A DNA stretch of 64,000 nt from an uncultured bacterium (GTDB taxonomy: Bacteria > Verrucomicrobiota > Lentisphaeria > Victivallales > UBA1829): assembly GCA_902780135.1 (NCBI GenBank), contig CACZEK010000014.1, positions 16 through 64,015 of the forward strand, in the 5' to 3' direction. Every line of letters begins with the position of its first letter. Within the stretch, counting starts at the first letter, position 1. Below, in pieces: positions 21,332-39,860 of this stretch. The notes under the pieces are model-generated. The model made no database searches. It had not been told where the DNA came from and was given only the letters and a program-made list of their open reading frames with translations. Both the position numbers and the translations under genes were made by a program.

Positions 21332-21610
21332 ATGATCGCAAGCTACAAATGCAAGGAAACCTTGAAGCTCAAGGCGGAAGGTTCCAGCAGAAAGTTCAAG
21401 GCGATCGAACGGATCGCCCTGCGGAAACTGGATATGCTCGACGCCATCGTGAATCTGGAAACGCTGCGGATCCCTCCGAGCAACCATTTCGAAGCGCTGC
21501 ACGGAAAGCGGGAAGGGCAGTACAGTATTCGCATCAACGACCAATGGCGGATTTGCTTTACCTGGCATGACGGAAACGTTCATGATGTTGAGATCGTCGA
21601 TTATCATTGA
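21332..21610 (+). CDS. higB: HigB toxin (RelE/ParE superfamily)
   Basis: LRIPPSNHFEALHGKREGQYSIRINDQWRICF...VEIVDYH. The toxin gene precedes the antitoxin. Confidence 0.93.
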   Translation: MIASYKCKETLKLKAEGSSRKFKAIERIALRKLDMLDAIVNLETLRIPPSNHFEALHGKREGQYSIRINDQWRICFTWHDGNVHDVEIVDYH

Positions 21611-21622
21611 GGAGACCAGACT

Positions 21623-21919
21623 ATGATCAGAACAAAGAATTTGATTCATCCCGGAGAGATCCTTCTGGAAGAATTTCTCAAGCCGATGGAAATCACGCAG
21701 AACAAGCTCGCGCTGGATCTCCATGTCCCCGCGCCGAGAATCTATGCCATCGTGAAAGGAACGCGGGCGATCACGGCCGACACAGCGTTGCGTCTGGGGC
21801 GGTACTTCGGAACCGGTCCCGAATTCTGGATTAATCTTCAGAGCAATTATGACCTGTGCGTTGCTGCGGCGGAGTGCCGGAAAGAAATCGACGGCATTCC
21901 GCAACGGGTTTTCGCCTGA
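21623..21919 (+). CDS. higA: HigA antitoxin (HTH)
   Basis: IHPGEILLEEFL, ITADTALRL..YFGT..EFWINLQ..YDL. Confidence 0.93.
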   Translation: MIRTKNLIHPGEILLEEFLKPMEITQNKLALDLHVPAPRIYAIVKGTRAITADTALRLGRYFGTGPEFWINLQSNYDLCVAAAECRKEIDGIPQRVFA

Positions 21920-22006
21920 CACTGCAAGCAGTGTTGATACAGTGCCTTGCTTCGCAACGGCACGCGCTCTCGCGTAGCAGAGCGCCGAACGTCAGCGCTT
22001 GCGCTG
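21919..22006. repeat. REP-like hairpin cluster 1 (inverted doublet)
   Basis: ACACTG-CAAG-CAGTGT, TGATACA, hairpins at 21942 and 21964 in opposite orientations, then AGCG-CTTG-CGCT. Confidence 0.8.
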
Positions 22007-22008
22007 TG

Positions 22009-22037
22009 GCCTGTTCCGGTTCCGCGCCGGGACAGGC
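22009..22037 (+). repeat. 29-bp palindromic repeat, copy 2 (terminator-like)
   Basis: GCCTGTTCCGGTTCCGCGCCGGGACAGGC followed by ATCTTTT. Confidence 0.85.
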
Positions 22038-22080
22038 ATCTTTTGATCGTCGTTTCAAGCCGCCGAGTGTCGGCGGACCG

Positions 22081-22950
22081 TCAGCGGTAGATATCATCCC
22101 AGAATTGCATATCCTGCCAAACGCTGGTCCTATGCGGACCGTAAGCCCCTTCAAGCATGCGCCCGAGACAATAGAGCGGAATTGACACAGGCAGCAGCAC
22201 CACGTCCGCAGCGAGTCCGACCGGCAGCCAGATCGCTTTCCAGCACCAGCCGAAGAACCCGGTCTTCATGATCATGTAATCGCCCCGGTCGTGTCTGGAG
22301 TAATACTCAACAGGCGGATAATCGACCTGATACCAGCCGTTTTCCATCGGGGAAAGACAGACGTAGCGGTCGCCCTCGCGGTCATAGGGGATCATCGGGC
22401 TCGGACCGCGCAGAACCCAGGGGACGGAGAGAGCCGGAAGCTCGTCCGGGTGAACCGTCGCTTTGTATAGAAATTGGGGATACACCTTCAGAAAATCTTC
22501 ATAAGTTTTGAAATCTTTGAAGGGATCGTTCGGCCTTACGACATATTCCAGAAAGTGGTCGTTGAAATGCGGCATTTCCGTCCAGGAAGAGGGGATCCGT
22601 TTCTTCGGCGCCTCGGGATCGACCGTGACGTCCACATGCTTCAACACCAGCTCGTCCGGCATGGGATCCAGGGGAATGTGTTTTTCGAACGATTGAACGG
22701 AAGTCAGGCACGGCGGCGTCTTTTCCCATATCAGGAAGCACGCCAGCGGGATGACATACCGTTTTTTTTCGCGTTCATAGGTCAGCGTGAGTTCTTTTTT
22801 GTCGGGAGACAACGCATACCTGATGTTTTTGAACCGCTGCTCCTCTCTGCCGGTCCATTTCATCGTCGCGCGCGACATCATGCATCCCGTTCCGCCCAGG
22901 CAGACGGCAAGGAACGCAGCGCAAAGCATGATATTCCGTATCACTTTCAC
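22081..22950 (-). CDS. Hypothetical lipoprotein
   Basis: GTG start and a signal peptide ending LGGTGC. C-terminal hydrophobic LPVGLAADVVLLP resembles the YceK/YidQ motif. Confidence 0.7.
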   Translation of the reverse strand: MKVIRNIMLCAAFLAVCLGGTGCMMSRATMKWTGREEQRFKNIRYALSPDKKELTLTYEREKKRYVIPLACFLIWEKTPPCLTSVQSFEKHIPLDPMPDELVLKHVDVTVDPEAPKKRIPSSWTEMPHFNDHFLEYVVRPNDPFKDFKTYEDFLKVYPQFLYKATVHPDELPALSVPWVLRGPSPMIPYDREGDRYVCLSPMENGWYQVDYPPVEYYSRHDRGDYMIMKTGFFGWCWKAIWLPVGLAADVVLLPVSIPLYCLGRMLEGAYGPHRTSVWQDMQFWDDIYR

Positions 22951-23142
22951 TGAGACTTGTCCTTTCTCCGGATGAAAACGATCATATTTTTACTATACCG
23001 TTCTAAACTCGGAAAGCAAGGCGCCCGGAAATCTTTTTTCTGAAAAAAGCGGAAAACCGGCTTGTTTTTTTGCCGGATGGAAAGTAAGTTATGCTTTTAT
23101 TCGGAAAACGAGTGTTTCACCCCTGCAACAAGGAGTTTTATC

Positions 23143-24177
23143 ATGTCCTCCCGTACAAGATTCGTCCGTCCGGCGGTCCTATTCGCGGCCGCCGCCATGC
23201 TCTGCGCCGCGGCGTTTACCGCGTGCGTCCATGGGATTCACGCCGCACCGCCGAAAGACGGAGATAAGACCGCGGGCTATCTCTTCGCGCACTTCCGCGG
23301 CGAACGCTCGAACGAATGGGAACAGATCTTCTTTGCCGTCAGCCGGGACGGCGCGAAGTGGCAGCCTCTGAACGACGGCAAGTCCGTGCTTCAAAGCAAT
23401 CTGGGCGAGGGCGGCGTGCGCGATCCCTTTGTGGTCCGCGACCCGGAAAACGGCACGGTCTACCTGATCGCGACCGACCTGTGCATCGGGCGCAACGGCG
23501 ACTGGGGACGCGCCCAGCGCGCGGGCAGCAAGGCGATCATCGTGTGGGAATCGAAGGACATGGTGAACTGGAGCGAACCGCGCCGCGTGGAGGTCGCCGT
23601 GCCGGGCGCGGGCTGCACGTGGGCGCCGGAAGCGTTCTGGGACGCCGACAAGAAAGAATTCTTCGTCTTCTGGGCGTCGCGCGAGACGCTCAACGGCTCG
23701 AACCGCCAGCGCATCTATTCCGCCCGCACGAAGGACTTCAAAACGTTCACCCCGGCGAAGCTCTACATCGAGAAGCCGGGCGACGTGATCGACACTGACA
23801 TCATTTCCGACAACGGCAAGCTTTACCGGTTCTCCAAGGACGAGACGCGGAAGAATATCATCATGGAGGTCAGCGACACGCTCGAAGGCGACTGGCAGCC
23901 CGTGCCGGGGTTCCCCGTGCGGGATTTCGCCGGATTCGAGGGGCCGGAGTGTTTCCGCATGGCGGACGGCCGCTGGTGCCTGATCGCCGATTATTATTCG
24001 CGCGGACAGGGCTACAAGGCGTTCTTCTGCGACGACCTCTCGAAGGGCGATTTCGCGCCGTCCGAACGCGGCATGGAGTTCCCGTACCGGTTCCGCCATG
24101 GCGGCGTCATCCCGCTCAGCCAAACCGAGTACGACGCCCTGCTGGCAAAATGGGGCACGGCAAGCCGTGCTGAGTAG
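23143..24177 (+). CDS. GH43 family glycoside hydrolase
   Basis: GVRDP, LIATDL, WAPE, VIDT, EGP and RHG motifs, plus a signal peptide. AGGAG RBS before ATG 23143. Confidence 0.9.
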   Translation: MSSRTRFVRPAVLFAAAAMLCAAAFTACVHGIHAAPPKDGDKTAGYLFAHFRGERSNEWEQIFFAVSRDGAKWQPLNDGKSVLQSNLGEGGVRDPFVVRDPENGTVYLIATDLCIGRNGDWGRAQRAGSKAIIVWESKDMVNWSEPRRVEVAVPGAGCTWAPEAFWDADKKEFFVFWASRETLNGSNRQRIYSARTKDFKTFTPAKLYIEKPGDVIDTDIISDNGKLYRFSKDETRKNIIMEVSDTLEGDWQPVPGFPVRDFAGFEGPECFRMADGRWCLIADYYSRGQGYKAFFCDDLSKGDFAPSERGMEFPYRFRHGGVIPLSQTEYDALLAKWGTASRAE

Positions 24178-24285
24178 TGCTCTGCTCCGCGAGAGCACAC
24201 GGCAAGCCGTGCTGAATAAGCGCTCTGCTCCGCGAGAGCACACGGCAAGCCGTGCTGAAGTAGCGCGCGGTTCCGCTCCGTCGCA
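24155..24285. repeat. REP-like hairpin cluster 2 (tandem 42-43 bp units, about 3 copies)
   Basis: CACGGCAAGCCGTGCTGA occurs three times, alternating with GYGCTCTGCTCCGCGAGAGCAC twice plus one degenerate copy. The cluster overlaps the GH43 stop codon. Confidence 0.9.
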
Positions 24286-24385
24286 TTAGCCGTGTGCTCC
24301 ATTTTCCGTGTCTTCTGCTTGTAAAAAGGGAAAAATAAGCTATATTGAATGGAGCGAAAAAACAGGCAGAACAAAGGAAACGGCG

Positions 24386-25006
24386 ATGGCGATCCCCTAC
24401 AGACAGGAAGTCCTCCGGAAGATGGTGCACCTCAGCTCCATCTGGATGCCCGTCTCGCTGTTTTACCTCCCCTGGCTGTTCAACGTGATCATGTTCGGCA
24501 CGTTCGCCGTGCTGAACGTCCTGATCGAGATCGCGGTGTTCCGCCGGGTCCCGTACGTGACGCCGCTCTACAAGAAACTGTTCGGCAAGATGGCGCGCGA
24601 GAGCGAACCGGGCAAGTTCCGGTTCAGCGGCGCGCCGCCGATGTACGCGTCCGCCTGCCTGACCGCGCTGTGTTTCTCGCCCCGCGTGGCGTCGTGCGCG
24701 TTCACGGTCCTGATCCTGAGCGACACGTCCGCGGCGCTGATCGGGCGCAAATGGGGGCGGCACCGCTTCCCCAACGGCAAATCGCTGGAAGGCTCGCTGG
24801 CGTTCCTGCTCTCCGGCTGGATCATCGCGGCGTGTTTCTGCCTGGCTGGCGGTCTGCCGGGCCGGATCGCGGCGGTCTGGCTGGGCGGCGTGGCGGTCTC
24901 CTGCGTCGCCGAATTCTTCAACGAACAAATCCACATGGACGACAATTTCACGATCCCGCTGCTCTTCGGCGCGGTCGCGGAATTCCTGCCCCTGCTGCTG
25001 CAATAA
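24386..25006 (+). CDS. Polyprenol/phytol/diacylglycerol kinase family membrane protein
   Basis: RKMVH, SDTSAALIGRKWG, KSLEGS and DDNFTIP motifs. Confidence 0.88.
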   Translation: MAIPYRQEVLRKMVHLSSIWMPVSLFYLPWLFNVIMFGTFAVLNVLIEIAVFRRVPYVTPLYKKLFGKMARESEPGKFRFSGAPPMYASACLTALCFSPRVASCAFTVLILSDTSAALIGRKWGRHRFPNGKSLEGSLAFLLSGWIIAACFCLAGGLPGRIAAVWLGGVAVSCVAEFFNEQIHMDDNFTIPLLFGAVAEFLPLLLQ

Positions 25007-25025
25007 AAAAGGAGCCGATCTCAAA

Positions 25026-25730
25026 ATGAACGAACAGAGACTTTACCGCTACGACACGCACATCCATACCGCCGAAGTGAGCAAATGCGCCAAATCCTCC
25101 GGCCGCGAGGTCGCCGAAGCCTACCACGCGCGCGGCTACGACGGCATCATCATCACGGACCATTTCTTCAACGGGAACACCACCGTGCCGCGCGACCTGC
25201 CGTGGCGGGAGCGCGTCGAGCTGTTCACGGCGGGCTACCGTGCGGCGAAGGAATACGGCGACCGGGTGGGGATGCAGGTGTTTTTCGCGTGGGAGGATTC
25301 CTCCGAGGGCAACGATTTCCTGACCTACGGGCTGGACGAAAACTGGCTCGCGGACCATCCGTTCATCGACCGCCTCCCGCTCGTCGACTACCTGAAATAC
25401 ATTCGCGCCGAGGGCGGCACGGTCGTCCACGCGCATCCGTTCCGGCAGGATTTCTACATCCCGATGATCCGTCTGCTCCCCGACCTGGTCGACGCCGTGG
25501 AGATCATGAACGGCCACCGCAAGGACGAGGAGAACCGCCGCGCGAAATGGTACGCGGACAGCTACGGGCTGCCGTGGACGGCGGGTTCGGACAACCACGA
25601 CGTGGCGAACGGATTCGCGGAGGCGGGCGTGCTGCTGGACGAACGCCTCACCGGGACGGCGCACTATGCGCGGCTGGTCCGCGAGCGCAAAATCCGCGCG
25701 TGCCTCCCGCATCTCGACGGCTGCTGCTGA
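25026..25730 (+). CDS. PHP-domain phosphoesterase
   Basis: DTHIHT, ITDH, AHPFR and GSDNH motifs. Confidence 0.9.
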   Translation: MNEQRLYRYDTHIHTAEVSKCAKSSGREVAEAYHARGYDGIIITDHFFNGNTTVPRDLPWRERVELFTAGYRAAKEYGDRVGMQVFFAWEDSSEGNDFLTYGLDENWLADHPFIDRLPLVDYLKYIRAEGGTVVHAHPFRQDFYIPMIRLLPDLVDAVEIMNGHRKDEENRRAKWYADSYGLPWTAGSDNHDVANGFAEAGVLLDERLTGTAHYARLVRERKIRACLPHLDGCC

Positions 25731-25799
25731 GCTTTCCGCGCATCCGCCGTGGGGCTGGCTTGCGGCGCGAACGTTCCGCGTCCTGCCGCCGTCAGGCTG

Positions 25800-26516
25800 T
25801 TATGCTTTTTTCCAGGAAAAACAAATGGTTTGCCGGAAGCTTTTCATGGCGGCCTTCAGCAGTTTCCATTTCTTGATGGAAACTTCGCCCGTTGTCCGGT
25901 CGTGCTGCGGGACGGGCATTTCAAAGAAACGCAGGTGTTTCTTTGCGACCATGCCGGAGAGAATGACGTTCGGGGCAAACGTGTCGCCGGGTATCGCACG
26001 ATAGATTTCCGCGAAGGATGCGGCACGCATTAAGCGATAGGGAGTATTGACGTCCCAGATGGTTTTCCTGCCGTAAAAGAGCTTGACCGTCATGCGCGAT
26101 ATGGCGGAGATTATTTTGCGCGGCAGCGCCTGCGCGCGTCCGTCCCGATAGCCTGCGAGGAAATCGTAGCCGGCGCGCCGGTCCCAGAGCTTCCCGAAAT
26201 GCTCCGGTCCCATTTCATCATCGGAATCGATCTGGAATATCCAGTCATAGCCGTTGTCCGCCGCTTCACGGTATCCCTGCAGGATCGTCGGCCCGTGTCC
26301 TCCGTTCGGCTTGTCGTGCGGCACGATATGCCCGGGATGCCGTTCCGCGGCCGCCTTCATCTGCCCCAGGCTGCCGTCCCTGCTGCCGTCGTTGTACGGA
26401 TGCAGCTGATAATCAATCCCGAGCGAGTCCAGAGCGTTCGCCCATTTGTCCAGAACGGAGCCGATGACGGCTTCTTCATTGTAGACGGGCATGACAATTG
26501 CCAGTTTATCGTTCAT
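25800..26516 (-). CDS. GT2 glycosyltransferase (polyprenol-phosphate glycosyltransferase-like)
   Basis: VMPVYNE, NDGSRD, NGGHG, DSD and R..GE motifs. A short single-domain protein of 238 aa. Confidence 0.88.
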   Translation of the reverse strand: MNDKLAIVMPVYNEEAVIGSVLDKWANALDSLGIDYQLHPYNDGSRDGSLGQMKAAAERHPGHIVPHDKPNGGHGPTILQGYREAADNGYDWIFQIDSDDEMGPEHFGKLWDRRAGYDFLAGYRDGRAQALPRKIISAISRMTVKLFYGRKTIWDVNTPYRLMRAASFAEIYRAIPGDTFAPNVILSGMVAKKHLRFFEMPVPQHDRTTGEVSIKKWKLLKAAMKSFRQTICFSWKKA

Positions 26517-27654
26517 AGCGCCTCCTTGCTAATGCATCGAATCCCTCCAGCGACATGGCGACCGCCTTGTCCATGTCCCAGTATTTGTATGCGCCCAGCC
26601 GTCCGCAGAACAGGATGCCGGGATGCCGGTTTGCGAGCTCCCGGTATTTCCGCAGGAGAGAATTGTTCCGTTCGTCGTTGACGGGATAGAACGCCTCCAG
26701 TCCGGGCTTCCACGCCATTGGATATTCGCGGAAGATGATGGTCTTGCCGGCGTTGAATGGCTTTTCCCATTCCGGATGGTAATGCTTGAACTCGTGAATC
26801 CGCGTGTACGGGACCGTTTCATCGCCGTAATTCATTACGGTTGTCCCCTGATAATCCCGGACCGGCACCGTTTCCCTTTCAAACCGGAGGCTGCGCCATT
26901 CCAGCGCCCCGAAACAGTATCCGAAGAATTCGTCGATCATGCCCGTATAGATGATCGTGCAATCCCGGGACAGCTGCGCGGCGATCTCCGAAAACGACGT
27001 CTTCAGGAGAAGCCTGATCCCCGGCGTGCCCGCCATCTTCCTGAACATGGCGTCGTACCCGTCGGCGGGGATCCCCTGATGCCGCGCGTTGAAATACTCC
27101 GTATCGTAGGTCATCCGGACGGGCAGACGGGTAATGATGTCCGCCGGAAGCTCCGAAGGCGGACGCCCCCATTGCTTTGCGGTATATCCTTTGATGAAAA
27201 GCCGGTACAGGTCGGGCCCGATGAGCGAGATCGCCTTTTCCTCCAGGTTGCGCGGCTCCCCGGAACCGTTTGTGCTCGATTCGATCCATTCCCGGGCTTC
27301 ATCCGGAGTAAACGCTTTGCCCGACACCTCCTGGATCGTCTTCAGGTTGATGGGCATGAAATAAACATGGCCGCAGGTGTGGATCAGCACGTGATGCCGG
27401 TACGAATTGAAGGCGGCGAACTGGCTGATGTAGTTCCAGACCGTTTCATTGGCGGTATGGAATATGTGCGAACCGTAGTCATGCACTTCGATGCCGGTTT
27501 CTTCGTCGATGGTCGCGCTGGAATTGCCGCCGAGCTTTTCCCGTTTGTCAACAAGCAGCACGGGCTGGTTCAACTGCGAGGCGATCCTCTCGGCATAGAC
27601 AAGTCCTGTTATGCCGGCTCCGACGACACAGAAACGATAATCAGATAAAGCCAT
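26506..27654 (-). CDS. glf: UDP-galactopyranose mutase
   Basis: VGAGITG, YGSHIFHT, YTAKQW, RLPVR, TRIHEFKH and GRLGAYKYWDMD motifs. Confidence 0.95.
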   Translation of the reverse strand: MALSDYRFCVVGAGITGLVYAERIASQLNQPVLLVDKREKLGGNSSATIDEETGIEVHDYGSHIFHTANETVWNYISQFAAFNSYRHHVLIHTCGHVYFMPINLKTIQEVSGKAFTPDEAREWIESSTNGSGEPRNLEEKAISLIGPDLYRLFIKGYTAKQWGRPPSELPADIITRLPVRMTYDTEYFNARHQGIPADGYDAMFRKMAGTPGIRLLLKTSFSEIAAQLSRDCTIIYTGMIDEFFGYCFGALEWRSLRFERETVPVRDYQGTTVMNYGDETVPYTRIHEFKHYHPEWEKPFNAGKTIIFREYPMAWKPGLEAFYPVNDERNNSLLRKYRELANRHPGILFCGRLGAYKYWDMDKAVAMSLEGFDALARRRYER

Positions 27655-27762
27655 TTTTATTCCTGAAGGGTTGTCAGGTGTTTTTTATGGTCGCAAGGAC
27701 GCGAAACGGTTGTGGTTGTATGGATAAGGACATGGATCGCGATGAGAAAAAGCCGCCTGTTT

Positions 27763-29346
27763 CTATGTCCGTTTCCAGTATTTGTTTTTCATCCAGCATA
27801 CGAAACAGCCGGAATACAACGGCAAAAACATGTTGGCGCATGCCGTATACCTGAAGTTCGCCTCCACGATGACCAGACATAAAAACGTGCCGATCAGGTA
27901 AAGGACGGGCAGTATGCGGATGATGTCGACGGAATCGACCTTCGGATCAAGAAGCGCACGCCGGGAGAGCAGCAGGAGAGCCAAACCTGCCGTAAAGCCG
28001 ACAAGGACCTTCAGCGCCTGATGCATCGCCGGGACCAGCTTCGTGCGGTAAGCCGGATTGTAATACATTTGCCAGGAGGAGGATTCCTTTTCGTAAACCA
28101 GGCGGATCTTCTCCTTGAACGTCATGCTTGACCAGCGCCGGTTTATTTCAGCCTTGATGTACGGCACAAGAACGGGCGGGCAATGGTTGTGCCGGAAAAC
28201 GAGAGTCTCTCCTGTTTCCTGCTGATACGCCTCGTATATCGCGAGCTTGTCCTCCATGATCGATCTGCCCTTCGTTGCATAATTCGCTCCGAAATACCGG
28301 GGCCAGTAGCCGTCGTCCGAACAAAGGCATGTGCGGGTCCCGTGATACTTCAGATTGACCGAATAGCTCCCGCACAATCCGATGAAGACCACAAGAGCCG
28401 CTGCGCAGAGACTTAAGATGACGTTTCTGACGGAAGTAATGCCGAGAAGGGTGTTCGCGACGAATACAAACAGCATGATGACGGCGATGAAAACCCCCGC
28501 ATCGGTTTTTGTCCAGAGCGTTATGAGGATTATCGCCCCCATGGCCGCGGCATAAAACACGCTGCTGTTTTTTGCCCAATGATATAAAAGCAGAAACTGC
28601 ACAAGGATGAGCGGGTAGAAGAAGTGTTCGGCATACAGCTTGAACGTAAACGCGATAAAATGTGGCGACCAGAAAAAAGCCGCGACGGCAAACAGCGCCG
28701 CCAACGGATGAAAGAGCCTGCTCCCCAGATAATAAAGCATTATGACGCACAGGATCTGCAAAAGCACGTGAAGCAGGCAGAGAAGAAGGATGGATTCTCC
28801 GAACAGTTTGATCGCAAGCGCATAGCAGCCTGTTGTGACCCAGCTTTTTATTTCGGGAAAGGACCCGGACGCCATTTCCCTGGCTTCGTTCAGGAAGATC
28901 AGGCTGTCATGCGTTTGATTCTCAAGCAGCATTGTCCCCAGATGGACATAGTAAAACAGCCCGCGCAGAATCAATCCGATGCCTGCGATGACGCATGCCG
29001 AAAGGACGGGATACCGCGCTATGGCGTCCAGCCATCCGTATAAAAACAACACTCTGTTCCGCAAACAATAAAAGCCGATGCCGAAAACGGCCGCAAGGAT
29101 CAGCATCTTTGCCGTCGAGATGCTGAAAAATGCCAGCAGCGCGCCGGAAAAAAACAGCGCCGCAAGTCCGGCGCGGACGCAACCGGAAAAAAAGAATGCG
29201 CGGCTGTTATCCCCGTCCGGCCGGAAGGACTGAATCGCGGCGTGAACGAAACTCCGGGGGCCGCAGTTGGAAGGGGCGGATGTCGTGGAGGTTTTCATGG
29301 AATCGTGTGATGCCGATGTGCTGTTCGTTTTCCCGAAGTGTAGCAT
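27763..29346 (-). CDS. Polytopic membrane glycosyltransferase (GT-C fold, ArnT/PMT-like)
   Basis: More than 10 hydrophobic segments, an acidic loop after the early TMs (THDSLIF), YAEHFF and C-terminal NFRY. Lies upstream of glf. Alternative start at 29298. Confidence 0.65.
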   Translation of the reverse strand: MLHFGKTNSTSASHDSMKTSTTSAPSNCGPRSFVHAAIQSFRPDGDNSRAFFFSGCVRAGLAALFFSGALLAFFSISTAKMLILAAVFGIGFYCLRNRVLFLYGWLDAIARYPVLSACVIAGIGLILRGLFYYVHLGTMLLENQTHDSLIFLNEAREMASGSFPEIKSWVTTGCYALAIKLFGESILLLCLLHVLLQILCVIMLYYLGSRLFHPLAALFAVAAFFWSPHFIAFTFKLYAEHFFYPLILVQFLLLYHWAKNSSVFYAAAMGAIILITLWTKTDAGVFIAVIMLFVFVANTLLGITSVRNVILSLCAAALVVFIGLCGSYSVNLKYHGTRTCLCSDDGYWPRYFGANYATKGRSIMEDKLAIYEAYQQETGETLVFRHNHCPPVLVPYIKAEINRRWSSMTFKEKIRLVYEKESSSWQMYYNPAYRTKLVPAMHQALKVLVGFTAGLALLLLSRRALLDPKVDSVDIIRILPVLYLIGTFLCLVIVEANFRYTACANMFLPLYSGCFVCWMKNKYWKRT

Positions 29347-29534
29347 ATTCGTGAGTAATATAACAGCAATTCATGAAAAATCAAGCAGAAAAGCAAAAAA
29401 GCGGTTGCCTTCCGCGCCGCGGAAGGATCGCCGGAAACATCCGCGGCCGTTGAATCGGGATGCCGCGGACGCGGACGGAAACGCCTCCGGACGGGAGCTT
29501 GGCGGATCCGGCGGCGACAAAGAAAAGCCGCCGC

Positions 29535-30704: not shown

Positions 30705-30797
30705 GAAAAAACGATGAGGATTGAAGGTGCTCCGCTCCGGCATCGTCCGGGCGGGAGGATCCCGGAGCGGGGGTTATGGTCGGAAAAGATCCGCCGG

Positions 30798-30965
30798 TCA
30801 GCCTCTGCGGCGCTGCGTGCGGCGTTTCTTCTCGCTCGGCTTTTCGTAGTGTCTCCGGTTGCGGAGTTCCTTGAGCGTGCCTTCCTTGTCGAGTTTCTTT
30901 TTCAGACGGCGGAGTGCGCGTTCGATCGAGTCGCCTTTCTTGAGCTTGACTTCCGTTGCTTCCAT
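30798..30965 (-). CDS. rpsU: 30S ribosomal protein S21
   Basis: Read manually (below the ORF-track cutoff): [49 protein letters not shown]. Strong RBS AGGGGGTGA. Confidence 0.95.
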
Positions 30966-31050
30966 ATTAGTTCACCCCCTTTCCTGAACAATTTGTCACA
31001 TCGTATTTCATCGGTAAAGACCTCATGAATGAATTCGGGTTGACGGTTGG

Positions 31051-32769: not shown

Positions 32770-32948
32770 CGAAAAAAGGTCCCGAAGATTTGTTTTCCTG
32801 CGTTAAGCTGTTATATTGATAGACGGAAAGGTTTTGCCGTGCCCGTCTCCATAACCGCCGTGAGAGCTCAGATCGTCAGAAGTGAACCCGGGTTAAAAAA
32901 ACAATTGCGTATAAGATACTCCATAAATAGAAAAAAGGCAAGAGCGGA

Positions 32949-35900
32949 ATGAAAAAAAGAGCATGGAAAAGCACGTTTTTTAAATTAATCTCTAAAACGA
33001 ATAAGATGCCGGGACGCATCGGCCCCCTCGAACCGGACATGATGCCGGTCGCCCTGCTTTGCCTTGCCGGAGCGAAATCCGGGAAACGCCCTTTGTTCTA
33101 CGTCACGGCGTCGCAGTCCCGCGCGGAACAGTGCCGCGACGACCTGTCCGCATGGTCGGAAGTCGCCGGAAAGATGTTCTCAGTCCACGCGCTGCCGGAC
33201 GGTTCCACGCGGCGGCAGAGTCTGCTTCAGGCGGATTCGCCGCGCGCCGAGGCGCTGCACCGCCTTCTGCTTGAGCCGCCGGACATCTTCTTCGGGTCGG
33301 TCACGAGCCTGACCTCGCCCGCGCCCGTGCCGCGCCTGATGCGCGAGAGCGAACTGGAGCTGAAGGTCGGCGATGAAATGGACCTGGCGGCGCTCGCGGA
33401 ACGTCTGGTGGAGATGGGCTACGACGACGAAGTCGAGGTCGGCATCCCCGGCGAATTCGCGCGGCGCGGCGGCCTGATCGACATCTTCTCCTCCTCGGAG
33501 ACCGCGCCCGCCCGCGTGGAGTTCTTCGGCGACACCATCGACAGCATCCGGCTGTTCCGCCCGGACACGCAGATGTCGACCGGCAAAGTGGATTCCTACC
33601 GCGTGATCCTGCGGTCGGGATCGGGCGGCGACGGGACGGTGGTGAACGGGACGCAGTACGCCTCCGCTCCGGCGTTCGAATATCTCCTGGAAAATGATTC
33701 CGTTCTGGTCGAGGAGGCCCCGGGCGAGATACGCACGCATCTGTCGCGCTACGGCACGCCGGAGGAGGCGGCGCAATGGGCGGCGTTCGAGGAGAAAATG
33801 AAGACGGAAGGCCGTCTGGTCGCGTTCGAGGACGCGGCGGGCGCGGCCGTGCCGGACGGCGGTCCGTGCGAGGCGTTCCCGTGCTATTCCACCGGACGCG
33901 ACGCGATGGCGGCTGCCGCCGGGCATGAATTCGCCTCGGGCGCCGATGCGGACGGCAGGGCGCTGGACCAGGCATTTTCCGTGCTGGCGCAGCAGCTGAC
34001 CGCGACCCGGATCCGCCAGTGGCTTGAGGAGAAAACGCACGTGACGCTGCTCGTCGGGCCGGATTCCGACCCGCATCAGGTGCGGCGCTGGATCCTCGAC
34101 CACGGCCTGTGCGAAAACGAGCTGCTGACCGTGGAGGAGGGGGCCGTCCCGTGCGGTTTCTTCCTGCCGAAGGAGAAGCTGGCGGTCCTGACGATCCGGG
34201 AGCTTTTCGCGCTGCCGTACCGCCGCCGGAGCATGACGCGCGAGCTTCAGATCGAGGACGACACGCCCCGGACCGAACCCGTTTCCCGCGAGGACGAGGC
34301 GGGCGTGATCTCCGCCGGGGACCTGGAGGAAGGCGACTACGCCGTGCATCTGAACTACGGCATCTGCCGTTACCGCGGGCTGGACGTGATCGAGGCCGCC
34401 GGGGCGCGCGCGGAGATGATCCTGCTGGAATTCGGCGACGACCAGCTCCTGCGGATCCCGGTCCGGCAGGCGCATCTGGTCACGCGATACGTCGGGTCGA
34501 AAAACACCCGCATCACGCTCAGCCGCATCAATTCGAGCCGCTGGAGCAAGGCGTGCGACGAGGCGCGCCACTCCGTGCGGAACCTGGCGTTCGAGATGCT
34601 CAAGATCCAGGCGATGCGCATGAAGCAGTCCGGCACGGCGTTCCCGGAGGACGACCCGGAGCAGCTGCTTTTCGAACAGGCGTTCCCGTTCAAGGAGACC
34701 CCGGACCAGCTGCGCGCCGCCGCCGAGATCAAGGCGGACATGGAGTCGCCGCGCCCGATGGACCGCCTGCTGTGCGGCGACGTGGGCTACGGCAAGACCG
34801 AGCTTGCGATGCGGGCGGCGTGCAAATGCGCGCTCGCGGGACGCCAGACCGCCATGCTGGTGCCGACGACCGTGCTCGCCCAGCAGCATTATTTCACGTT
34901 CCGGGAGCGGTTCGCCGGGACGGGCATCGTGATCGAACAGCTGTCCCGCTTCAAGACGAAGCCGGAGCAGCAGAAGATCCTGGAACGCCTCGGCCGCGGC
35001 CAGATCGACATCGTGATCGGCACGCACCGGCTGGTCCAGAACGACGTCGAGTTCAAGGACCTCGGCCTCGTTATCATCGACGAGGAACAGCGGTTCGGCG
35101 TGCTCCACAAGGACCGCCTGAAGCACCTCCGCGCGACCGTGGACGTGCTGACCATGACCGCCACCCCCATCCCGCGCACGCTCCACATGTCGCTCTCCGG
35201 CATCCGCGACCTCAGCACGCTGATGAACGCCCCCGTGAACCGCCTGCCGATCCGGACCGTCTTCGCGCAGTACGAGCCGAACCTGGTGCGCGTGGCGATC
35301 GAACGCGAACTGAACCGCGGCGGACAGGTGTACTATCTGCACAACCGCGTGAAGAGCATCGAAAAGGCCGCGCTCGAGATCGGCGCGATGTTCCCCGACG
35401 TCCCGCTCGGCGTCGCCCACGGGCAGATGGACAAGAGCGAGCTCGAGGACGTGATGTCCTCGTTCATCGAGGGGAAGACGAAGATCCTGGTCTGCACCTC
35501 GATCATCGAGTCCGGCATCGACATCCCGAACGCGAACACCATCATCATCGAACGCGCCGACCGGTTCGGGCTCGCCGAACTCTACCAGCTCCGCGGCCGC
35601 GTGGGACGCTGGGTGCGGCAGGCGTACGCGTACCTTTTCCTGCCGAAGGACGGCATCCTGACCGGGGACGCCCGCAAGCGCATCGCCGCGATCCGCCGCT
35701 ACACGCACCTCGGCGCGGGATTCCAGCTCGCCATGAGCGACCTGGAGATACGCGGCGCGGGCAACATCCTGGGCGAGGAGCAGAGCGGGCAGATCAACGC
35801 CGTCGGTTTCCACCTGTACTGCACGCTCCTGCGCGACTGCGTGGCGTTGTTCAAGGGCGAAAAGCTCCCGACCGCGCCGGACTGCGAACTCTACCTCGAT

Positions 35901-36308
35901 TTCCTGAGCTTCGCGGTCGAGCCGCCGCAGGGCATGATCGCCGCCGGCATCCCGCTCGACTACATCGAATCGCCGCGCATGCGCCTGCACTGCTACCGCA
36001 GGCTCGCGATGTTCACCTCGGAACACGACCTCGACGCGTTTGCGTCCGAGCTGCGCGACCGGTTCGGCCCGGTCCCGGAGCAGGTCGACCATTTCCTGAT
36101 GTCCTGCCGGATCCGCCTCGCCGCCGCGGCCGCGGGCATCACGAACGTGACCTGCCGCGACAACCTGGTGTATCTGGAGAAGAACAAGCGCATGCTCCGG
36201 CGCGACGGCATGATCCCGGCGATCCTGCCGCGCTCGACCCCCGCGCAGAAACTGAAACTCGTCCTGCGGACCGTGCGGGAATTCGTCCCGCGCGCGGAAC
36301 AGGTTTGA
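32949..36308 (+). CDS. mfd: Transcription-repair coupling factor
   Basis: GEFARRGGLID, ETPDQ, GDVGYGKT, DEEQRFGV, TATPIPRT, QLRGRVGR, DLEIRGAGN and a TRCF domain. Alternative start at 33006. Confidence 0.96.
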   Translation: MKKRAWKSTFFKLISKTNKMPGRIGPLEPDMMPVALLCLAGAKSGKRPLFYVTASQSRAEQCRDDLSAWSEVAGKMFSVHALPDGSTRRQSLLQADSPRAEALHRLLLEPPDIFFGSVTSLTSPAPVPRLMRESELELKVGDEMDLAALAERLVEMGYDDEVEVGIPGEFARRGGLIDIFSSSETAPARVEFFGDTIDSIRLFRPDTQMSTGKVDSYRVILRSGSGGDGTVVNGTQYASAPAFEYLLENDSVLVEEAPGEIRTHLSRYGTPEEAAQWAAFEEKMKTEGRLVAFEDAAGAAVPDGGPCEAFPCYSTGRDAMAAAAGHEFASGADADGRALDQAFSVLAQQLTATRIRQWLEEKTHVTLLVGPDSDPHQVRRWILDHGLCENELLTVEEGAVPCGFFLPKEKLAVLTIRELFALPYRRRSMTRELQIEDDTPRTEPVSREDEAGVISAGDLEEGDYAVHLNYGICRYRGLDVIEAAGARAEMILLEFGDDQLLRIPVRQAHLVTRYVGSKNTRITLSRINSSRWSKACDEARHSVRNLAFEMLKIQAMRMKQSGTAFPEDDPEQLLFEQAFPFKETPDQLRAAAEIKADMESPRPMDRLLCGDVGYGKTELAMRAACKCALAGRQTAMLVPTTVLAQQHYFTFRERFAGTGIVIEQLSRFKTKPEQQKILERLGRGQIDIVIGTHRLVQNDVEFKDLGLVIIDEEQRFGVLHKDRLKHLRATVDVLTMTATPIPRTLHMSLSGIRDLSTLMNAPVNRLPIRTVFAQYEPNLVRVAIERELNRGGQVYYLHNRVKSIEKAALEIGAMFPDVPLGVAHGQMDKSELEDVMSSFIEGKTKILVCTSIIESGIDIPNANTIIIERADRFGLAELYQLRGRVGRWVRQAYAYLFLPKDGILTGDARKRIAAIRRYTHLGAGFQLAMSDLEIRGAGNILGEEQSGQINAVGFHLYCTLLRDCVALFKGEKLPTAPDCELYLDFLSFAVEPPQGMIAAGIPLDYIESPRMRLHCYRRLAMFTSEHDLDAFASELRDRFGPVPEQVDHFLMSCRIRLAAAAAGITNVTCRDNLVYLEKNKRMLRRDGMIPAILPRSTPAQKLKLVLRTVREFVPRAEQV

Positions 36309-36338
36309 TTTTTTGAACGTACAGAAGGAGGCCGCACC

Positions 36339-36845
36339 ATGAAGATGACAGCAGTCCTGAACGACATCACGAGGCTCGACGTCGACGCGATCGTCAACGC
36401 CGCGAACTGTTCCCTGCTGGGCGGCGGCGGAGTCGACGGCGCCATTCACCGCGCCGCCGGACGCCGTCTCTACGAAGCCTGCCTGAAGTTCGGCGGCTGC
36501 CGCACCGGAGAGGCGCGCATCACGCCCGGATTCGATCTGCCCGCCCGCTTCGTGATCCATACGCCCGGACCCGTCTGGCGCGGCGGCGGACACGGCGAAC
36601 CCGACCTGCTGCGTTCGTGCTACCTGAACTCGCTCGCGCTGGCGGAGGAAAACGGCTGCCGCGTGGTGGCGTTTCCGGGCATCAGCATCGGCGTGTACCG
36701 TTACCCGCTTGAGGCGGCGGTGAGGATCGCCGTGGACGCGGTCGGCACGTGGGGCGGGAACCTGCCGGAAGAGGTCGTGTTCTGCGCGTTTTCCGAAAAC
36801 GTGCTGGAGGCGTACCGGCGCGCGCTGGACGCGTTCCGTTCCTGA
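36339..36845 (+). CDS. Macro-domain O-acetyl-ADP-ribose deacetylase (YmdB-like)
   Basis: [28 protein letters not shown] and [10 protein letters not shown] motifs. Confidence 0.93.
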
Positions 36846-36881
36846 CTGTTTGAACAGAAAAAGGGGGGCACCGGGCAAATT

Positions 36882-36970
36882 GTACCGTCGCGCAGCACGG
36901 CACTGCCGCAGTGTGTCCTTCGTGCGCAAGCGAAGCTGAGCGCACAGCCTCAGTGGAGGACATGTCCTCC
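36882..36970. repeat. REP-like hairpin cluster 3
   Basis: GTACCGT-C-GCGCAGC-ACGGCAC. Positions 36920-36946 are identical to 39591-39617. Confidence 0.8.
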
Positions 36971-37735
36971 TCAGAACATGCGGCGGACGTATTCGAAGAG
37001 GATGACGGTGGCGGCCTGCGCCACGTTCAGGGATTCCGCGTCGCCGGGCATCGGGATGTTCAGCCCGCGCGAGTTTTCGAGTTCGGCGACGCCCGTCGCC
37101 TCGCAGCCGAGGATGATCGCGCTGCGGTCGAAGAGGTCCGGCTCCAGAAAGACGTTGCCGCCGCTCGCCGGAAGCGTCCGGTAGCAGGTCTTCACGCCGA
37201 GCTTGCGGAGGTCCGCGGCGAGTTCCGTCAGGTCGCCGCCGTACCGGATCTTCAGGGCGAACTGCGCGCCGGACGCGGACCGCACGACTTTGTCGGAGAA
37301 CGGGTCGGCGGTGCCGCGCGTGAGCCAGACTTCGTGCAGCCCGACGGCGCGCGCCGTGCGCAGGATCGTGCCGAAATTGCCGGGGTCGCCCACGCGGTCG
37401 AGCACGAGCGCGAAGGGGTCCGCCATGGGACGGTCAAGCGGGACGGGTTCCGGGCGGCGCGACAGCACGAGGATGCCCTGCGAATGCACCGTGGGCGCGA
37501 TGCGGTCGAATTCGGATTGAGGTAAAATGACGGGTTCGACGGGCGAGGGGAAGGGCAGGGGGGTGTCTTCGCGGAGGATGACGAGTTCGACGAGGCCCGG
37601 CGCGAGCGTGACGACTTCGCGGGAGGCGCGGAGACCGTCGCAGAAACAGTATTCGGAATCGCGGCGGCCGTGGCGCGTGCGGAGCGCGCGGAGCAGCGAT
37701 TCGGTGCGTCTGGTGAGGCCGCCGGATTCAGGCAT
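36971..37735 (-). CDS. TrmH/SpoU family RNA methyltransferase
   Basis: DPGNFGTILRTA, LGCEATG and IPMPG.AESLNVA motifs. Confidence 0.92.
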   Translation of the reverse strand: MPESGGLTRRTESLLRALRTRHGRRDSEYCFCDGLRASREVVTLAPGLVELVILREDTPLPFPSPVEPVILPQSEFDRIAPTVHSQGILVLSRRPEPVPLDRPMADPFALVLDRVGDPGNFGTILRTARAVGLHEVWLTRGTADPFSDKVVRSASGAQFALKIRYGGDLTELAADLRKLGVKTCYRTLPASGGNVFLEPDLFDRSAIILGCEATGVAELENSRGLNIPMPGDAESLNVAQAATVILFEYVRRMF

Positions 37736-37754
37736 CCGAAGGGAGACCCGGAGG

Positions 37755-38570
37755 TCAGGCGGCGGGCTGTTCGGCGGGCTTCGCTTCGGCGGCGGGAGCC
37801 GTTTCGGCGGGCTTTTCAGCCGGGGCCGTGACGGACGCCGCGGCCTGCGGATGAAGCTTCTCGTCGAGCTGTTTGGCGAGTCCCGCCCAGTAGCCGTAGA
37901 CGGTGGAGGAACCCTGCGCTGCGGCGGCCGCGAGGTTGATGTTCTTCAGCGCGGCGTCGGCCTTCATCATCTGGTCGAGGCCGGAGAAGATGCGCGCGGC
38001 GGCGTAGGAGGCTTCCACGCGGAGGTCTTCGGGCGTCTGGGAGAGGCCGGCGATGCGTTCGAACTCGGTCGCGGCGTCTTCCTTCTTGCCGAGCTGTTCG
38101 AGGATGTAGGCGGCGTCGAGCGCGGAACGGATCTTGATGAACGTTTCCGCCTTGGACGAGGAGGCGACGGCGAGGAGCTGTTCGCGGGCTTTCTCCAGGT
38201 CGCCGGGCTGATCGCTGAGGATGAGGTCGCCCGCGAGGCGGAGGCGCGCGAAATCCGCGGCCTTGTTGCCCGAATGCTTCGCGATGGCGGCTTCGAGTTC
38301 GGCGATGCTGCCGGCGTTGGCGAGTTCGCGGCGTGCGGAGAGTTCCGCGCGCTGGATCGCGCCCTGGATGATGATGATGACGGAAACGAGCACGGCGAAC
38401 GCGCAGACGCCGATGATGGCTTTCTTCCAGTTCACAGCCATCCACATTTCGAATTCGTCCAGCATCGTGGAAATGGCGGGCTCCTCCTGCGAGGGCGCGG
38501 GGCGCTTGTGCTGCTGGGCGGCGGCGAGCTGTTCGAAGGACTCGATTTTCTTCTTGTTTTTGTTTGCCAT
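37755..38570 (-). CDS. Single-TM helical-repeat protein (YfgM/TPR-like)
   Basis: NWK followed by a TM helix and Ala-rich amphipathic helices. Upstream promoter TTGATT-17-TATATT. Confidence 0.65.
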   Translation of the reverse strand: MANKNKKKIESFEQLAAAQQHKRPAPSQEEPAISTMLDEFEMWMAVNWKKAIIGVCAFAVLVSVIIIIQGAIQRAELSARRELANAGSIAELEAAIAKHSGNKAADFARLRLAGDLILSDQPGDLEKAREQLLAVASSSKAETFIKIRSALDAAYILEQLGKKEDAATEFERIAGLSQTPEDLRVEASYAAARIFSGLDQMMKADAALKNINLAAAAAQGSSTVYGYWAGLAKQLDEKLHPQAAASVTAPAEKPAETAPAAEAKPAEQPAA

Positions 38571-38614
38571 GGTGCGATATGTCCTGAAAAAGAGTTGGCG
38601 TTTTTAGTTGATTC

Positions 38615-39166
38615 TTATAATATAGCGCATCCGGCGCGTAAAATCAACTCGAAAACCCCGGAACGCAAACCTTTTTTCGCTTTTTGACCGCCTTTTGACT
38701 TCGATGGAACAAAAAAACACCCGTGCCGTCGAAGATGCCGGTCCCGCAGCCCCCGGATCACCGGGGAAAAATACTTGTAGATCTTTTCCTTCAGCATCGC
38801 GTGTGCCGCGTCGGACCATTTCACGCGGATGCGGAGTTTGTCGCCGGCGCGGGAGAGCGCGCCGAAGCCCAGGGCGGCGACGCCCTGCGGGAACATCCGC
38901 GCGGTCTCGGCTTCGTCGAGGTTCTTCCGGTTGGCGAGTTCGTACAGGTAATGCTCCGAGTCCACCGGGATCTGCTCGCCTTTCTTTTCGTGGTAGGCGA
39001 GGATGTCGTCGAGGTCGCCGGAGGTCAGCCGGACGGAGCCGTCCCGCCCGTTGCGGCAGAACCGCGTGTCGCCGACCGAAAAGAGCGTCCATTCGACGGG
39101 CACGCCCGATTCGTCGTGCGCGACGTCCGGGCCGGACGCGGACAATGCGATCCAGTTTTCGTTCAT
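38615..39166 (-). pseudogene. Truncated Mu-like prophage I (maturation protease) gene
   Basis: IPVDSEH, AALGF, VKWS..A and YKYFSPV match the Mu-type protease N-terminal motifs. Similarity ends near 38740 and the ORF tail runs through the next gene's promoter. Confidence 0.7.
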
Positions 39167-39547
39167 TTTTGTGCAGCCCTTTCATTTTGTCCGTTTTTTT
39201 TGAAAAAATTGCGCAAACCGTTTGACTTTTGGAAAAACAGAGTTATTTTATAACTGGAATCGCCATAGTGGGATAAATATTCGTAAGTCCAGCGGCCCAT
39301 GGTTCGCCCATGGCTCAAACTTGGCAGGTCCGGGTGGTAACGGCCCGGCATGGCGGTTCTGATTTTTTATACTCTGTTGAACCGGTTTTTGTATTGCTCC
39401 GATGCGCTGCAATGCGCATCCACGATTTTCCCAGTGTCCGTCCACGCCTTTCCGTTTCAGCGTGACATATCCGGTCCCGTCAAGCGCCTCGACGTTGATA
39501 ATGTTGTTTTCCCCGGCGACGGGCGTTTGGAGCCTGCAGCATTTCCC

Positions 39548-39860
39548 GTCCGCCGGTGCAGCGGCGGACTACCGCAGTTGAGGCTTTGCCTCGTGCGCAA
39601 GCGAAGCTGAGCGCACACCGCAAGCGGTGCTGATACAGTGCTTGGCTACGCTCAAGCACACCGCAAGCGGTGCTGATACAGTGCTTGGCTACGCTCAAGC
39701 ACATGGTATGTATATGTCTTCGTCCGCCAGCGTAGCGGCGGACTACCGCAGTCGAGGCTTTGCTTCGTGCCGTCGCGTAGCACGGCACTACCGCAGTTGA
39801 GGCTTTGCCTCACGTGCCCGAGCGGAGCCGGGCACTACCCAAGTCGAGGCATCCGCCTCG
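39548..39860. repeat. REP-like hairpin cluster 4 (mosaic array, 7 hairpins)
   Basis: Four units of hairpin plus TACCGCAGTYGAGGC...GCYTC (39548, 39722, 39767, 39814; the last linker is diverged), an exact 43-bp tandem duplication (39616-39702), and a variant hairpin at 39593. Confidence 0.9.

Follow-up and report, generated by a model that had tools for sequence, protein, structure and literature searches.

The 64,000-nucleotide stretch of DNA analysed here (the window), which spans positions 16 to 64,015 on the forward strand of contig CACZEK010000014.1 in GenBank assembly GCA_902780135.1, derives from an uncultured bacterium of the Victivallales (Verrucomicrobiota, Lentisphaeria, UBA1829) and carries, between 21,919 and 39,860, four clusters of small hairpins capped by the heptamer GCGNAGC. 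Repetitive extragenic palindromic (REP) sequences and the bacterial interspersed mosaic elements (BIMEs) have made such palindromes familiar, and most known REP-type repeats come from Proteobacteria, in which their copying is ascribed to a domesticated transposase, the REP-associated tyrosine transposase (RAYT). The question raised by this locus is what kind of repeat the capped hairpins represent, and whether a RAYT stands behind them. They very probably constitute a genus-specific family of modular extragenic palindromes, which is REP/BIME-like in behaviour and is not tied to a RAYT. The repeat family is new, of an already known kind of bacterial repeat, and it is not a new kind of system. 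The source assembly comprises 2.84 Mb in 29 contigs with 61% G+C and is 93.9% complete. No Rfam family matched the 64-kb window at its gathering score, and no paper was found that joins Lentisphaerae with extragenic palindromes; the papers naming GCGNAGC, in the parts of their text that were available, treat the motif itself, a phage packaging signal or the Bacteroides ops sites and describe no repeat family.

The repeat unit, about 45 nt in length, is constructed from a core hairpin bearing the GCGNAGC cap, named H1, and from partner hairpins termed H2 and H3. H1 comprises 22 nt of the form GTGnnnn-x-GCGNAGC-n'n'n'n'CAC, that is, a fixed GTG/CAC foot, four free pairs, one bulged base and the cap, and the consensus of its arm is GTG-[C/T][C/T/G][C/G/T][G/T]-x-GCGNAGC-complement-CAC. 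The pattern GTGN5GCGNAGCN4CAC is matched 78 times in the genome and its reversed form is not matched at all; this pattern fixes the core and leaves only N free there, and among its matches the loop base is A in 30, C in 21, T in 14 and G in 13, and each arm type occurs with several N. The bulge tracks the last base of the arm, being a (45) or g (7) after G and c (18) or t (6) after T. When the core was relaxed, 62 perfect-arm copies possessed the exact core and 17 contained one core mismatch, for which simulation expects 5-7.

On the GCGNAGC strand, H1 is followed at its 3' side by 8-10 nt of linker (either TACCGCAGT or TGTATCAG, each with variants) and then by the second hairpin. H2 is exemplified by GGAGGAC-TT-GTCCTCC and also begins with GGAGGC, GAGGGC, CAGGGC, CAAGGAC or CGAGGC, while H3 is exemplified by CACCG-CTTG-CGGTG and also begins with CACGG, CACTG, CACAC or CACCCC. 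The units recur with a period of 43-48 nt, and larger compound periods of 96 nt (contig 1) and 119 nt (contig 4) are present as well. The arrays are mostly head-to-tail, including runs of five and of four minus copies, a run of three plus copies and the mixed orders --++, +-+ and -+, and five back-to-back inverted H1 pairs were seen. The linkers hold stop codons in two of the three frames, so that insertions into the last codons of genes would be tolerated. As a side observation, the commonest H2, GGAGGAC..GTCCTCC, pairs a perfect Shine-Dalgarno-like GGAGG with CCTCC, the anti-Shine-Dalgarno sequence, often right after a stop codon, which may be a coincidence.

That the fold rather than the letters is kept was indicated by the covariation of the stems. 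The 78 copies had been picked by foot and cap alone, leaving four stem pairs free, and the remaining five H1 pairs, being fixed by the picking pattern, are uninformative. All four free pairs are intact in 58 of these copies, and the inner pairs are of Watson-Crick type in 286 of 312 cases against a shuffle mean of 156.6 (standard deviation 8.2, maximum 183, 2000 shuffles). In a second set of 60 distinct copies, drawn from the window, the rest of the genome and congener loci, both-side changes occur at all four free pairs; the 84 double-change cells compare with 29.3±3.4 after shuffling and were reached in none of 500 shuffles, and the covariation score was 0.396 versus 0.130, slid-structure controls giving 0.103 at most. 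The four free pairs of H1 covary strongly, though through no more than about ten recurring arm types. The partner hairpin with the CAAG loop, for which covariation had likewise been claimed, keeps both inner pairs in 18 of 20 pattern matches with four stem types; the H3 pattern itself is in no excess (20 matches versus 36 for the reversed control), and only the H3 pairing serves as evidence. Among the H2 candidates, 23 of 46 form six or seven of seven pairs, in nine types.

The perfect H1 copies fall into ten arm types, namely GTGTCCG (16), GTGCGCG (9), GTGCCCG (7), GTGCTTG (6), GTGCTCT (6) and GTGCCGT (6), followed by the rarer GTGTTCT (4), GTGCCGG (2), GTGTGCG (1) and GTGGGCG (1). These types are shared across species and recur in the listed matches of the congeners G013 and G003, where extras such as GTGCCTG and GTGCGCT are also found. 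The original prediction had called the family structure-conserved and sequence-variable: the first half stands, the pairing being kept through changes on both sides, and the second has to be narrowed to about ten discrete, recurring arm types. Of the 20 imperfect copies, seven join two known-type arms (chimeras or one-base variants) and six belong to a subtype with a shifted bulge.

The palindromes are numerous well beyond the window. The heptamer GCGNAGC itself is not enriched (3745 occurrences in the genome versus 3803 in a first-order Markov simulation); perfect flanking arms of at least 7 bp occur 64 times versus 2 simulated, with a sharp peak at exactly 7 bp. The fixed 7+1+7+7 template is satisfied perfectly by 62 copies versus 0 and 2 in two simulations, and with six of seven pairs by 44 copies versus 8 and 5. 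A covariance model built from 60 distinct copies gave 133 genome matches at E ≤ 1, of which 108 lie at E ≤ 0.01 (150 candidates scored). The expectation of a dispersed REP/BIME-like family is met in that the copies are extragenic, palindromic, clustered and high in number.

Of 15 other genomes of the genus, 13 contain the family, with 37-105 pattern matches each; the two that lack it, G007 and G008, are the most distant congeners and show about 70-77% nucleotide identity in flanking genes. With one exception, 25 genomes of other genera in the order gave 0-2 pattern matches, which is the chance level; the exception, G035 from another family of the order, contains seven sites of GTGCGGATGCGAAGCTGTTCAC with a GCGAAGC core, GTG/CAC ends and unpaired arms, and these may be unrelated or decayed. 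Across the phylum, the covariance model detected nothing at E ≤ 0.001 in 150 other genomes representing 78 other genera. An exact scan with the commonest arm type retrieved at least 115 loci, and among the 80 matches listed, 60 belong to rumen metagenome-assembled genomes (MAGs) titled Lentisphaeria, Victivallales or Lentisphaerae, 16 to rumen MAGs titled no more precisely than "uncultured bacterium" and four are single matches in unrelated G+C-rich genomes. The public sequencing runs that contain the region are bovine and sheep gut metagenomes. Carriage by phage was considered and rejected, one viral contig alone holding one ordinary unit at the contig end.

No transposase of the expected kind accompanies this family. 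The profile PF01797 (Y1_Tnp) gave no match at E ≤ 0.01 in the genome that carries the window, control genomes being positive, and in 5 of 15 congeners it detected full genes in G009 and G015 (E ~1e-40) and fragments in G005, G001 and G002; judged by their sequences, the two full genes appear to be classical IS200 transposases. Beside six of the seven Y1 loci there is no H1, and at the seventh, in G009, one poor copy (5/7 pairs) lies about 200 nt to one side. TnpB (PF07282) likewise has no match in the source genome. The trinucleotide that follows H1 in the 78 copies is TAC, which reads GTAG on the other strand, in 25, TGC in 20, TGT in 9, AAC in 7 and another in 17, the GCAG and GTTG variants amounting to 27 copies. 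According to the available text of PMC8266576, GTAG is needed for cleavage by the RAYTs studied, no change being tolerated in Escherichia coli, and the GCAG and GTTG variants are barely or not cut by the tested enzymes. With GTAG not conserved and no Y1 or RAYT gene flanked by hairpins in the 14 hairpin-bearing genomes, the family lacks two defining features of RAYT-type REPs, and the link to GTAG-led, RAYT-processed REPs drawn in the original prediction was not borne out. As a separate observation, the Y1 gene of G009 (C99, about 1420-1900, minus strand) lies in a low-G+C insert with its own terminal hairpin, and the frame of this gene runs into a neighbouring large repeat-protein gene as if an insertion sequence had landed inside.

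The elements of the window, together with the genes that they touch, are as follows.

21920..21933, minus: H3 (CACTG-CAAG-CAGTG as read on the plus strand), directly 3' of the TGA (21917-21919) of a helix-turn-helix (HTH) gene, 21623-21919
21942..21963, minus: H1 with the bulge shifted two pairs lower, GTGCC-g-TTGC-GAA-GCAA-GGCAC (5 bp, bulge, 4 bp)
21964..21985, plus: H1 with arms GCGCTCT/AGAGCGC, bulge c and cap GCGTAGC
21994..22005, plus: short H3-like hairpin AGCG-CTTG-CGCT
24156..24176, minus: H3 (CACGG-CAAG-CCGTG) and linker, encoding the last codons (TASRAE) of the GH43 gene 23062-24177 (plus)
24177..24198, minus: H1 with arms GTGCTCT/AGAGCAC and cap GCGGAGC
24198..24262, minus: second unit, with H3 at 24198-24211, linker and H1 at 24220-24241 (one arm mismatch), then the third H3 of cluster 2 at 24241-24254 and its linker
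24263..24284, minus: degenerate H1 remnant with unpaired arms, read directly
36882..36903, plus: H1 with arms GTACCGT/ACGGCAC (one A.C mismatch) and cap GCGCAGC
36922..36945, plus: H1b, a 24-nt variant, GTGCGC-a-AGC-GAA-GCT-ga-GCGCAC
36955..36970, plus: H2 GGAGGAC-AT-GTCCTCC, 0 nt from the stop codon (36971-36973, tca) of the SpoU methylase gene 36971-37735 (minus)
39548..39592, plus: unit with H1 at 39548-39569 (arms GTCCGCC, cap GTGCAGC), linker TACCGCAGTT and H2 GAGGC-TTT-GCCTC
39593..39616, plus: H1b, 24-nt variant identical in sequence to the copy at 36922
39616..39702, minus: two tandem 43-nt units, with H3 (CACCG-CAAG-CGGTG) at 39616 and 39659, linker CTGATACA and H1 at 39638-39659 and 39681-39702 (arms GTGCTTG, cap GCGTAGC)
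39722..39860, plus: three tandem H1-linker-H2 units, with H1 at 39722-39743 (GTCCGCC), 39767-39788 (GTGCCGT) and 39814-39835 (GTGCCCG)
39845..39860, plus: the last H2 of these units, CGAGGC-ATCC-GCCTCG, 0 nt from the stop codon (39861-39863) of guaA, 39861-41405 (minus)

All 14 elements that had been predicted were located at the positions given for them, by direct reading and by script: thirteen are clear hairpins, and the fourteenth, at 24263-24284, is decayed with arms that no longer pair, as had been noted. The described plan of a 7-bp arm, one bulged base, GC-GNA-GC and the complementary arm is the common form, two variants are present beside it, and all four loops (GAA, GTA, GGA, GCA) occur as well. 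The H1 copies at 21942-21963 and 21964-21985 form a back-to-back inverted pair. Folded as single-stranded DNA (ssDNA), the window elements adopt the drawn hairpins at -6.6 to -8.8 kcal/mol (z -2.7 to -3.9), under a nearest-neighbour model that assigns equal energy to both strands and leaves the sheared G.A loop out of account. The genes next to the elements are ordinary ones, encoding guaA, the SpoU methylase, a Macro-domain protein, the GH43 hydrolase and the HTH protein; the genes between inverted arrays (a Sel1-repeat protein, GH43, a zinc-ribbon protein and a 5'-3' exonuclease) were considered as a source of a transposase and set aside, all being ordinary. Over 21500-40500, Logan contigs of the public runs (three of DNA, one of RNA) break at the arrays, a single DNA contig spans cluster 1 unchanged, and where contigs join between clusters the sequence resembles repeats of other loci or other organisms; these contigs yielded no readable insertion polymorphism. 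Left of cluster 4, a 183-aa open reading frame (ORF; 38615-39166, minus) matches PF10123, the Mu-like prophage I protein, weakly (E 1.4e-7); synteny with the congeners breaks there, and it may be a prophage remnant.

The position of the units relative to genes is far from random. The 78 copies are distributed as 43 between co-directional genes, 32 in convergent gaps, one in a divergent gap and two inside called genes; divergent gaps account for 16% of the intergenic length, yet hold one of 76 intergenic copies, which indicates that promoter regions are avoided. The units sit in the 3' untranslated region (UTR), between stop codon and intrinsic terminator, with the H2/H3 end toward the gene. 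At 1861 gene ends, 17 perfect hairpins begin immediately after the stop codon, versus 0-14 (mostly below 10) at the other offsets listed. About 22 family modules, in which H2 or H3 is followed by the linker and a reverse H1, begin at offsets -3 to +2 of the stop codon, and in eight further arrays (nine ends) the called ORF reaches 21-26 nt into the array and terminates in the linker. The window contains four such cases, at TGA/H3 (21919/21920), at H2/tca (36970/36971 and 39860/39861) and at the GH43 end, where H3 and the linker encode the final six codons (TASRAE) as well as the TAG stop, the stop at 24175-24177 being the TAG of the linker's GTAG. As the H2/H3 end faces the gene in the window cases, the GCGNAGC strand is antisense to that mRNA. 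Elsewhere, on contig 21 (12316-13452), a stand-alone 5'-3' exonuclease gene of flap-nuclease-like type starts at an H1 copy, probably a mis-called start.

Comparison of orthologous gene ends among congeners, species at about 80-96% nucleotide identity, revealed an extensive turnover of the arrays. The guaA 3' site is empty in two congeners and in G007, where a TAA stop is followed within about 35-50 nt by an intrinsic terminator; one unit lies between stop and terminator in two congeners, and eight congeners together with the source genome hold from 2 to more than 10 modules, all different. An H2-type hairpin is positioned within -2 to +1 nt of the stop codon in all 11 filled sites (source genome and 10 of 12 congeners), and several of these stems include the stop codon itself (TGAGGGC..GCCCTCA, TAAGGC..GCCTTA). 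At the SpoU gene, H2 abuts the stop codon in the source genome, G009 and G010 and is 4 nt off in G001; in G012, G013, G014 and G005 it takes the place of the stop and of the two codons before it, and the frame continues to a TGA in the linker, giving the repeat-encoded end GGQVLH* in the first three and GGQALY* in G005. The SpoU site is empty in five congeners. The terminal SpoU unit is regarded as orthologous because the rare linker CCTCAGT is common to the orthologs, yet G013 has a different H1 there, as would be expected from unequal recombination between neighbouring units. In this neighbourhood, about 2.7 kb and an extra gene with a signal-peptide-like start lie between the Macro-domain and SpoU genes (orthologs of window positions 36845 and 36971) in G001, G004, G006, G003 and G015 and are missing in the source genome.

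The GH43 gene offers a third series. Its native end, ..WGTNLPK*, is found in G013 and G014, and close variants in G004 and G001, where no module is present. In G010, the first base of an H3 lies 1 nt ahead of the native stop position, and the protein gains TASGAE*; the end is shorter by 15 nt in the source genome and four congeners, which is what a deletion between two CACC words would produce, and in G009 and G002 the module is read in another frame (APQAVLK*, SPQAVTK*). The H3 stem at this site is CACGG/CCGTG in the source genome versus CACCG/CGGTG in five congeners, a change compensated in place. From one species to the next, arrays gain, lose and rearrange units, and a reading frame can terminate within one of them. 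Clean pairs of filled and empty sites with alignable flanks were not obtained at the guaA and SpoU sites, the spacers being too diverged.

These features can be combined into a tentative explanation. The invariant foot, the constant bulge and the cap, along with a stem middle that changes by paired substitution only, point to recognition of, or action on, a folded single strand, and foot, bulge and cap would then be the recognised parts. The isolated mini-hairpin d(GCGNAGC) is described as stable for every N and far more so as DNA than as RNA, d(GCGAAGC) and d(GCGAAAGC) melting at 76.5 °C versus 39 °C for r(GCGAAAGC) (PMC13037366), and this reported stability would favour DNA as the folded form. 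The family may accordingly persist because its propagation or retention requires hairpin formation in single-stranded nucleic acid, more likely DNA; arrays would change when the conserved stretches of their units recombine unequally or slip against one another, and new loci might be seeded by a copying activity other than a Y1/RAYT transposase. A more specific version, to which we give a low probability, holds that a structure-specified palindrome spreads without a RAYT and is aimed at the first nucleotides after the stop codon: an activity supplied by the host or by the element would read the shape of the capped, bulged hairpin, and the DNA past the stop codon might be single-stranded more often where the ribosome leaves the transcript and its coupling to RNA polymerase ends. 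The stop-abutting hairpins probably also act on the host mRNA, through protection of its 3' end or through ribosome stalling at termination. An effect on host genes is plausible, since in E. coli those REPs that lie no more than 15 nt from a stop codon have been reported to stall ribosomes (Liang et al. 2015, as cited in PMC12306157).

It is unlikely, if possible, that such effects on mRNA are the principal reason for which the units are kept, that is, that they are RNA elements of 3' UTRs which protect mRNA 3' ends or slow terminating ribosomes. Both effects are described for E. coli REPs in the accessible portion of PMC12306157, and the location between stop and terminator, the 22 modules that start within 3 nt of a stop codon and the avoidance of divergent promoter gaps would all suit this idea. 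It is at odds with the strand on which the cap lies, H1 being sense as often as antisense to transcription (24:19) and the mRNA of stop-abutting units carrying the complement GCUNCGC and not the GNA cap. The invariant loop G and A fit the rule of the DNA mini-hairpin, and the reported stability of the RNA form is much lower (PMC13037366). Nor do mismatches on the cap strand give a strand signal (6 G.T versus 7 C.A), and the RNA contigs covering the region provided no usable ends.

The arm complementarity might alternatively be unselected and of mechanical origin. In quasipalindrome correction, a change in one arm is transferred to the other by intrastrand template switching at replication, and unequal recombination could then spread the corrected copies. 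This proposal, which we regard as doubtful, accommodates the SpoU terminal unit of G013 with its CCTCAGT linker and different H1, the seven of 20 imperfect copies that combine two known-type arms, and the local homogenisation seen as three identical CACGG/CCGTG H3 hairpins in cluster 2 against CACCG/CGGTG in five congeners. It leaves the invariant foot, bulge and cap and the mere ten or so species-shared arm types unexplained, and it still requires hairpin formation in ssDNA, so that it would complement the persistence through single-stranded hairpins rather than replace it.

A classical RAYT-driven REP family, whose single-copy RAYT gene was missed by the MAG assemblies, appears very improbable. 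The genomes are 69-94% complete, GTAG stands on the opposite strand in 25 of 78 copies, and, from what the available text reports, the shape resembles that of group-3 REPs (REPSm of Stenotrophomonas maltophilia) and a bulge is needed by the E. coli enzyme (PMC8266576). The hypothesis is opposed by the missing PF01797 match in the source genome, by the Y1 genes of the congeners, which seem to be classical IS200 genes or fragments with none flanked by hairpins, and by the poorly conserved GTAG with its 27 GCAG/GTTG variants. The last alternative, an ops-like hairpin of the non-template DNA strand that pauses RNA polymerase or recruits a NusG-family protein, shares the GCG..AGC stem with E. coli ops (GCGGTAGC) and Bacteroides opsX (YGCGNAGCR), both described as non-template-strand DNA hairpins in the part of PMC11685472 consulted, and T-ending arm types give a fitting cGCGNAGCA, but it is extremely unlikely, given that ops lies in operon leaders and the present copies, about 100 in number, lie at gene 3' ends in both orientations, that the commoner a-GCGNAGC-C context does not fit Y...R, and that the source genome has one NusG gene, with no extra paralog tracking the hairpin-bearing genomes.

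Several points weigh against the reading that we prefer, a modular REP/BIME-like family independent of a RAYT. The few arm types, shared across species, imply that the covariation signal reflects about ten old compensated changes that were then copied and not free drift. H1 shows no orientation bias with respect to GC skew either (29:34, 15 undecided, the skew being noisy in this MAG), and a strand-specific ssDNA process might leave such a bias. Mobility is deduced solely from the differing occupancy of sites between species, and no enzyme was found. All compared genomes are MAGs, in which repeats are the parts most often unassembled, and gene positions stem from crude in-house gene calls, the window genes and four others being those checked against Pfam.

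A well-populated, fast-changing family in a distant uncultured lineage that shares the habits of REPs but has neither the enzyme nor the GTAG signal is relevant to the question of whether such families require RAYTs in order to persist. Meanwhile, it provides a natural series of compensated stems under a fixed cap and many genes with repeat-supplied last codons, both of which could serve to test the effects of hairpins at stop codons on termination and mRNA ends.

Among known systems, the REP/BIME elements of Enterobacteria are similar in their short GC-rich hairpins present in hundreds of copies, their extragenic location at gene 3' ends with convergent gaps favoured, the stem bulge and the frequent distance of a few nucleotides from stop codons, and BIMEs in particular share the clustering of palindromes with conserved linker motifs, represented here by the H1-linker-H2/H3 periods of 43-48 nt. 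The present family differs from them in the lack of a RAYT in 14 hairpin-bearing genomes, in GTAG being limited to 25 of 78 copies, in its many head-to-tail arrays and in its partner modules, H2 and H3 being different hairpins and not a second REP type. Unlike REPINs, inverted REP doublets that fold into one longer hairpin and replicate as that unit, most H1 copies are single or arranged in direct arrays, few inverted pairs with zero spacer being present, and unlike miniature elements derived from IS200/IS605, the family comes with neither PF01797 nor PF07282 in its genome and with no GC-skew bias. BOX elements of Streptococcus pneumoniae and mycobacterial interspersed repetitive units (MIRUs) are also modular intergenic repeats without a known transposase, variable in module number and transcribed with flanking genes, and MIRUs overlap the flanking stop and start codons; the BOX and MIRU units belong to other phyla, are unrelated in sequence, longer and not built on a capped, bulged 22-nt hairpin.

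Closer in size and shape is REPSm of S. maltophilia (group 3), a 23-nt element made up of GTAG, a stem of 8 bp and a loop of 3 nt (PMC8266576); the stem here has 9 bp, the loop is likewise of 3 nt with one base that matters, and the opposite strand of the family often starts with GTAGTGCC. To judge from the available text, REPSm is perfectly palindromic, keeps its GTAG and has a RAYT of its own, whereas the present family has no RAYT, always contains a 1-nt bulge, leaves N free in its GNA loop and falls into about ten arm types. The nearest relative of the cap is the d(GCGNAGC) mini-hairpin, since the H1 cap is exactly this heptamer with invariant G and A and all four N in use. The natural examples given in the accessible part of PMC13037366, namely the phage G4 origin, ssiA of RSF1010 and the phage N4 early promoters, are functional sites that occur singly, in origins and promoters of phages or plasmids, whereas the same heptamer here caps a chromosomal repeat family.

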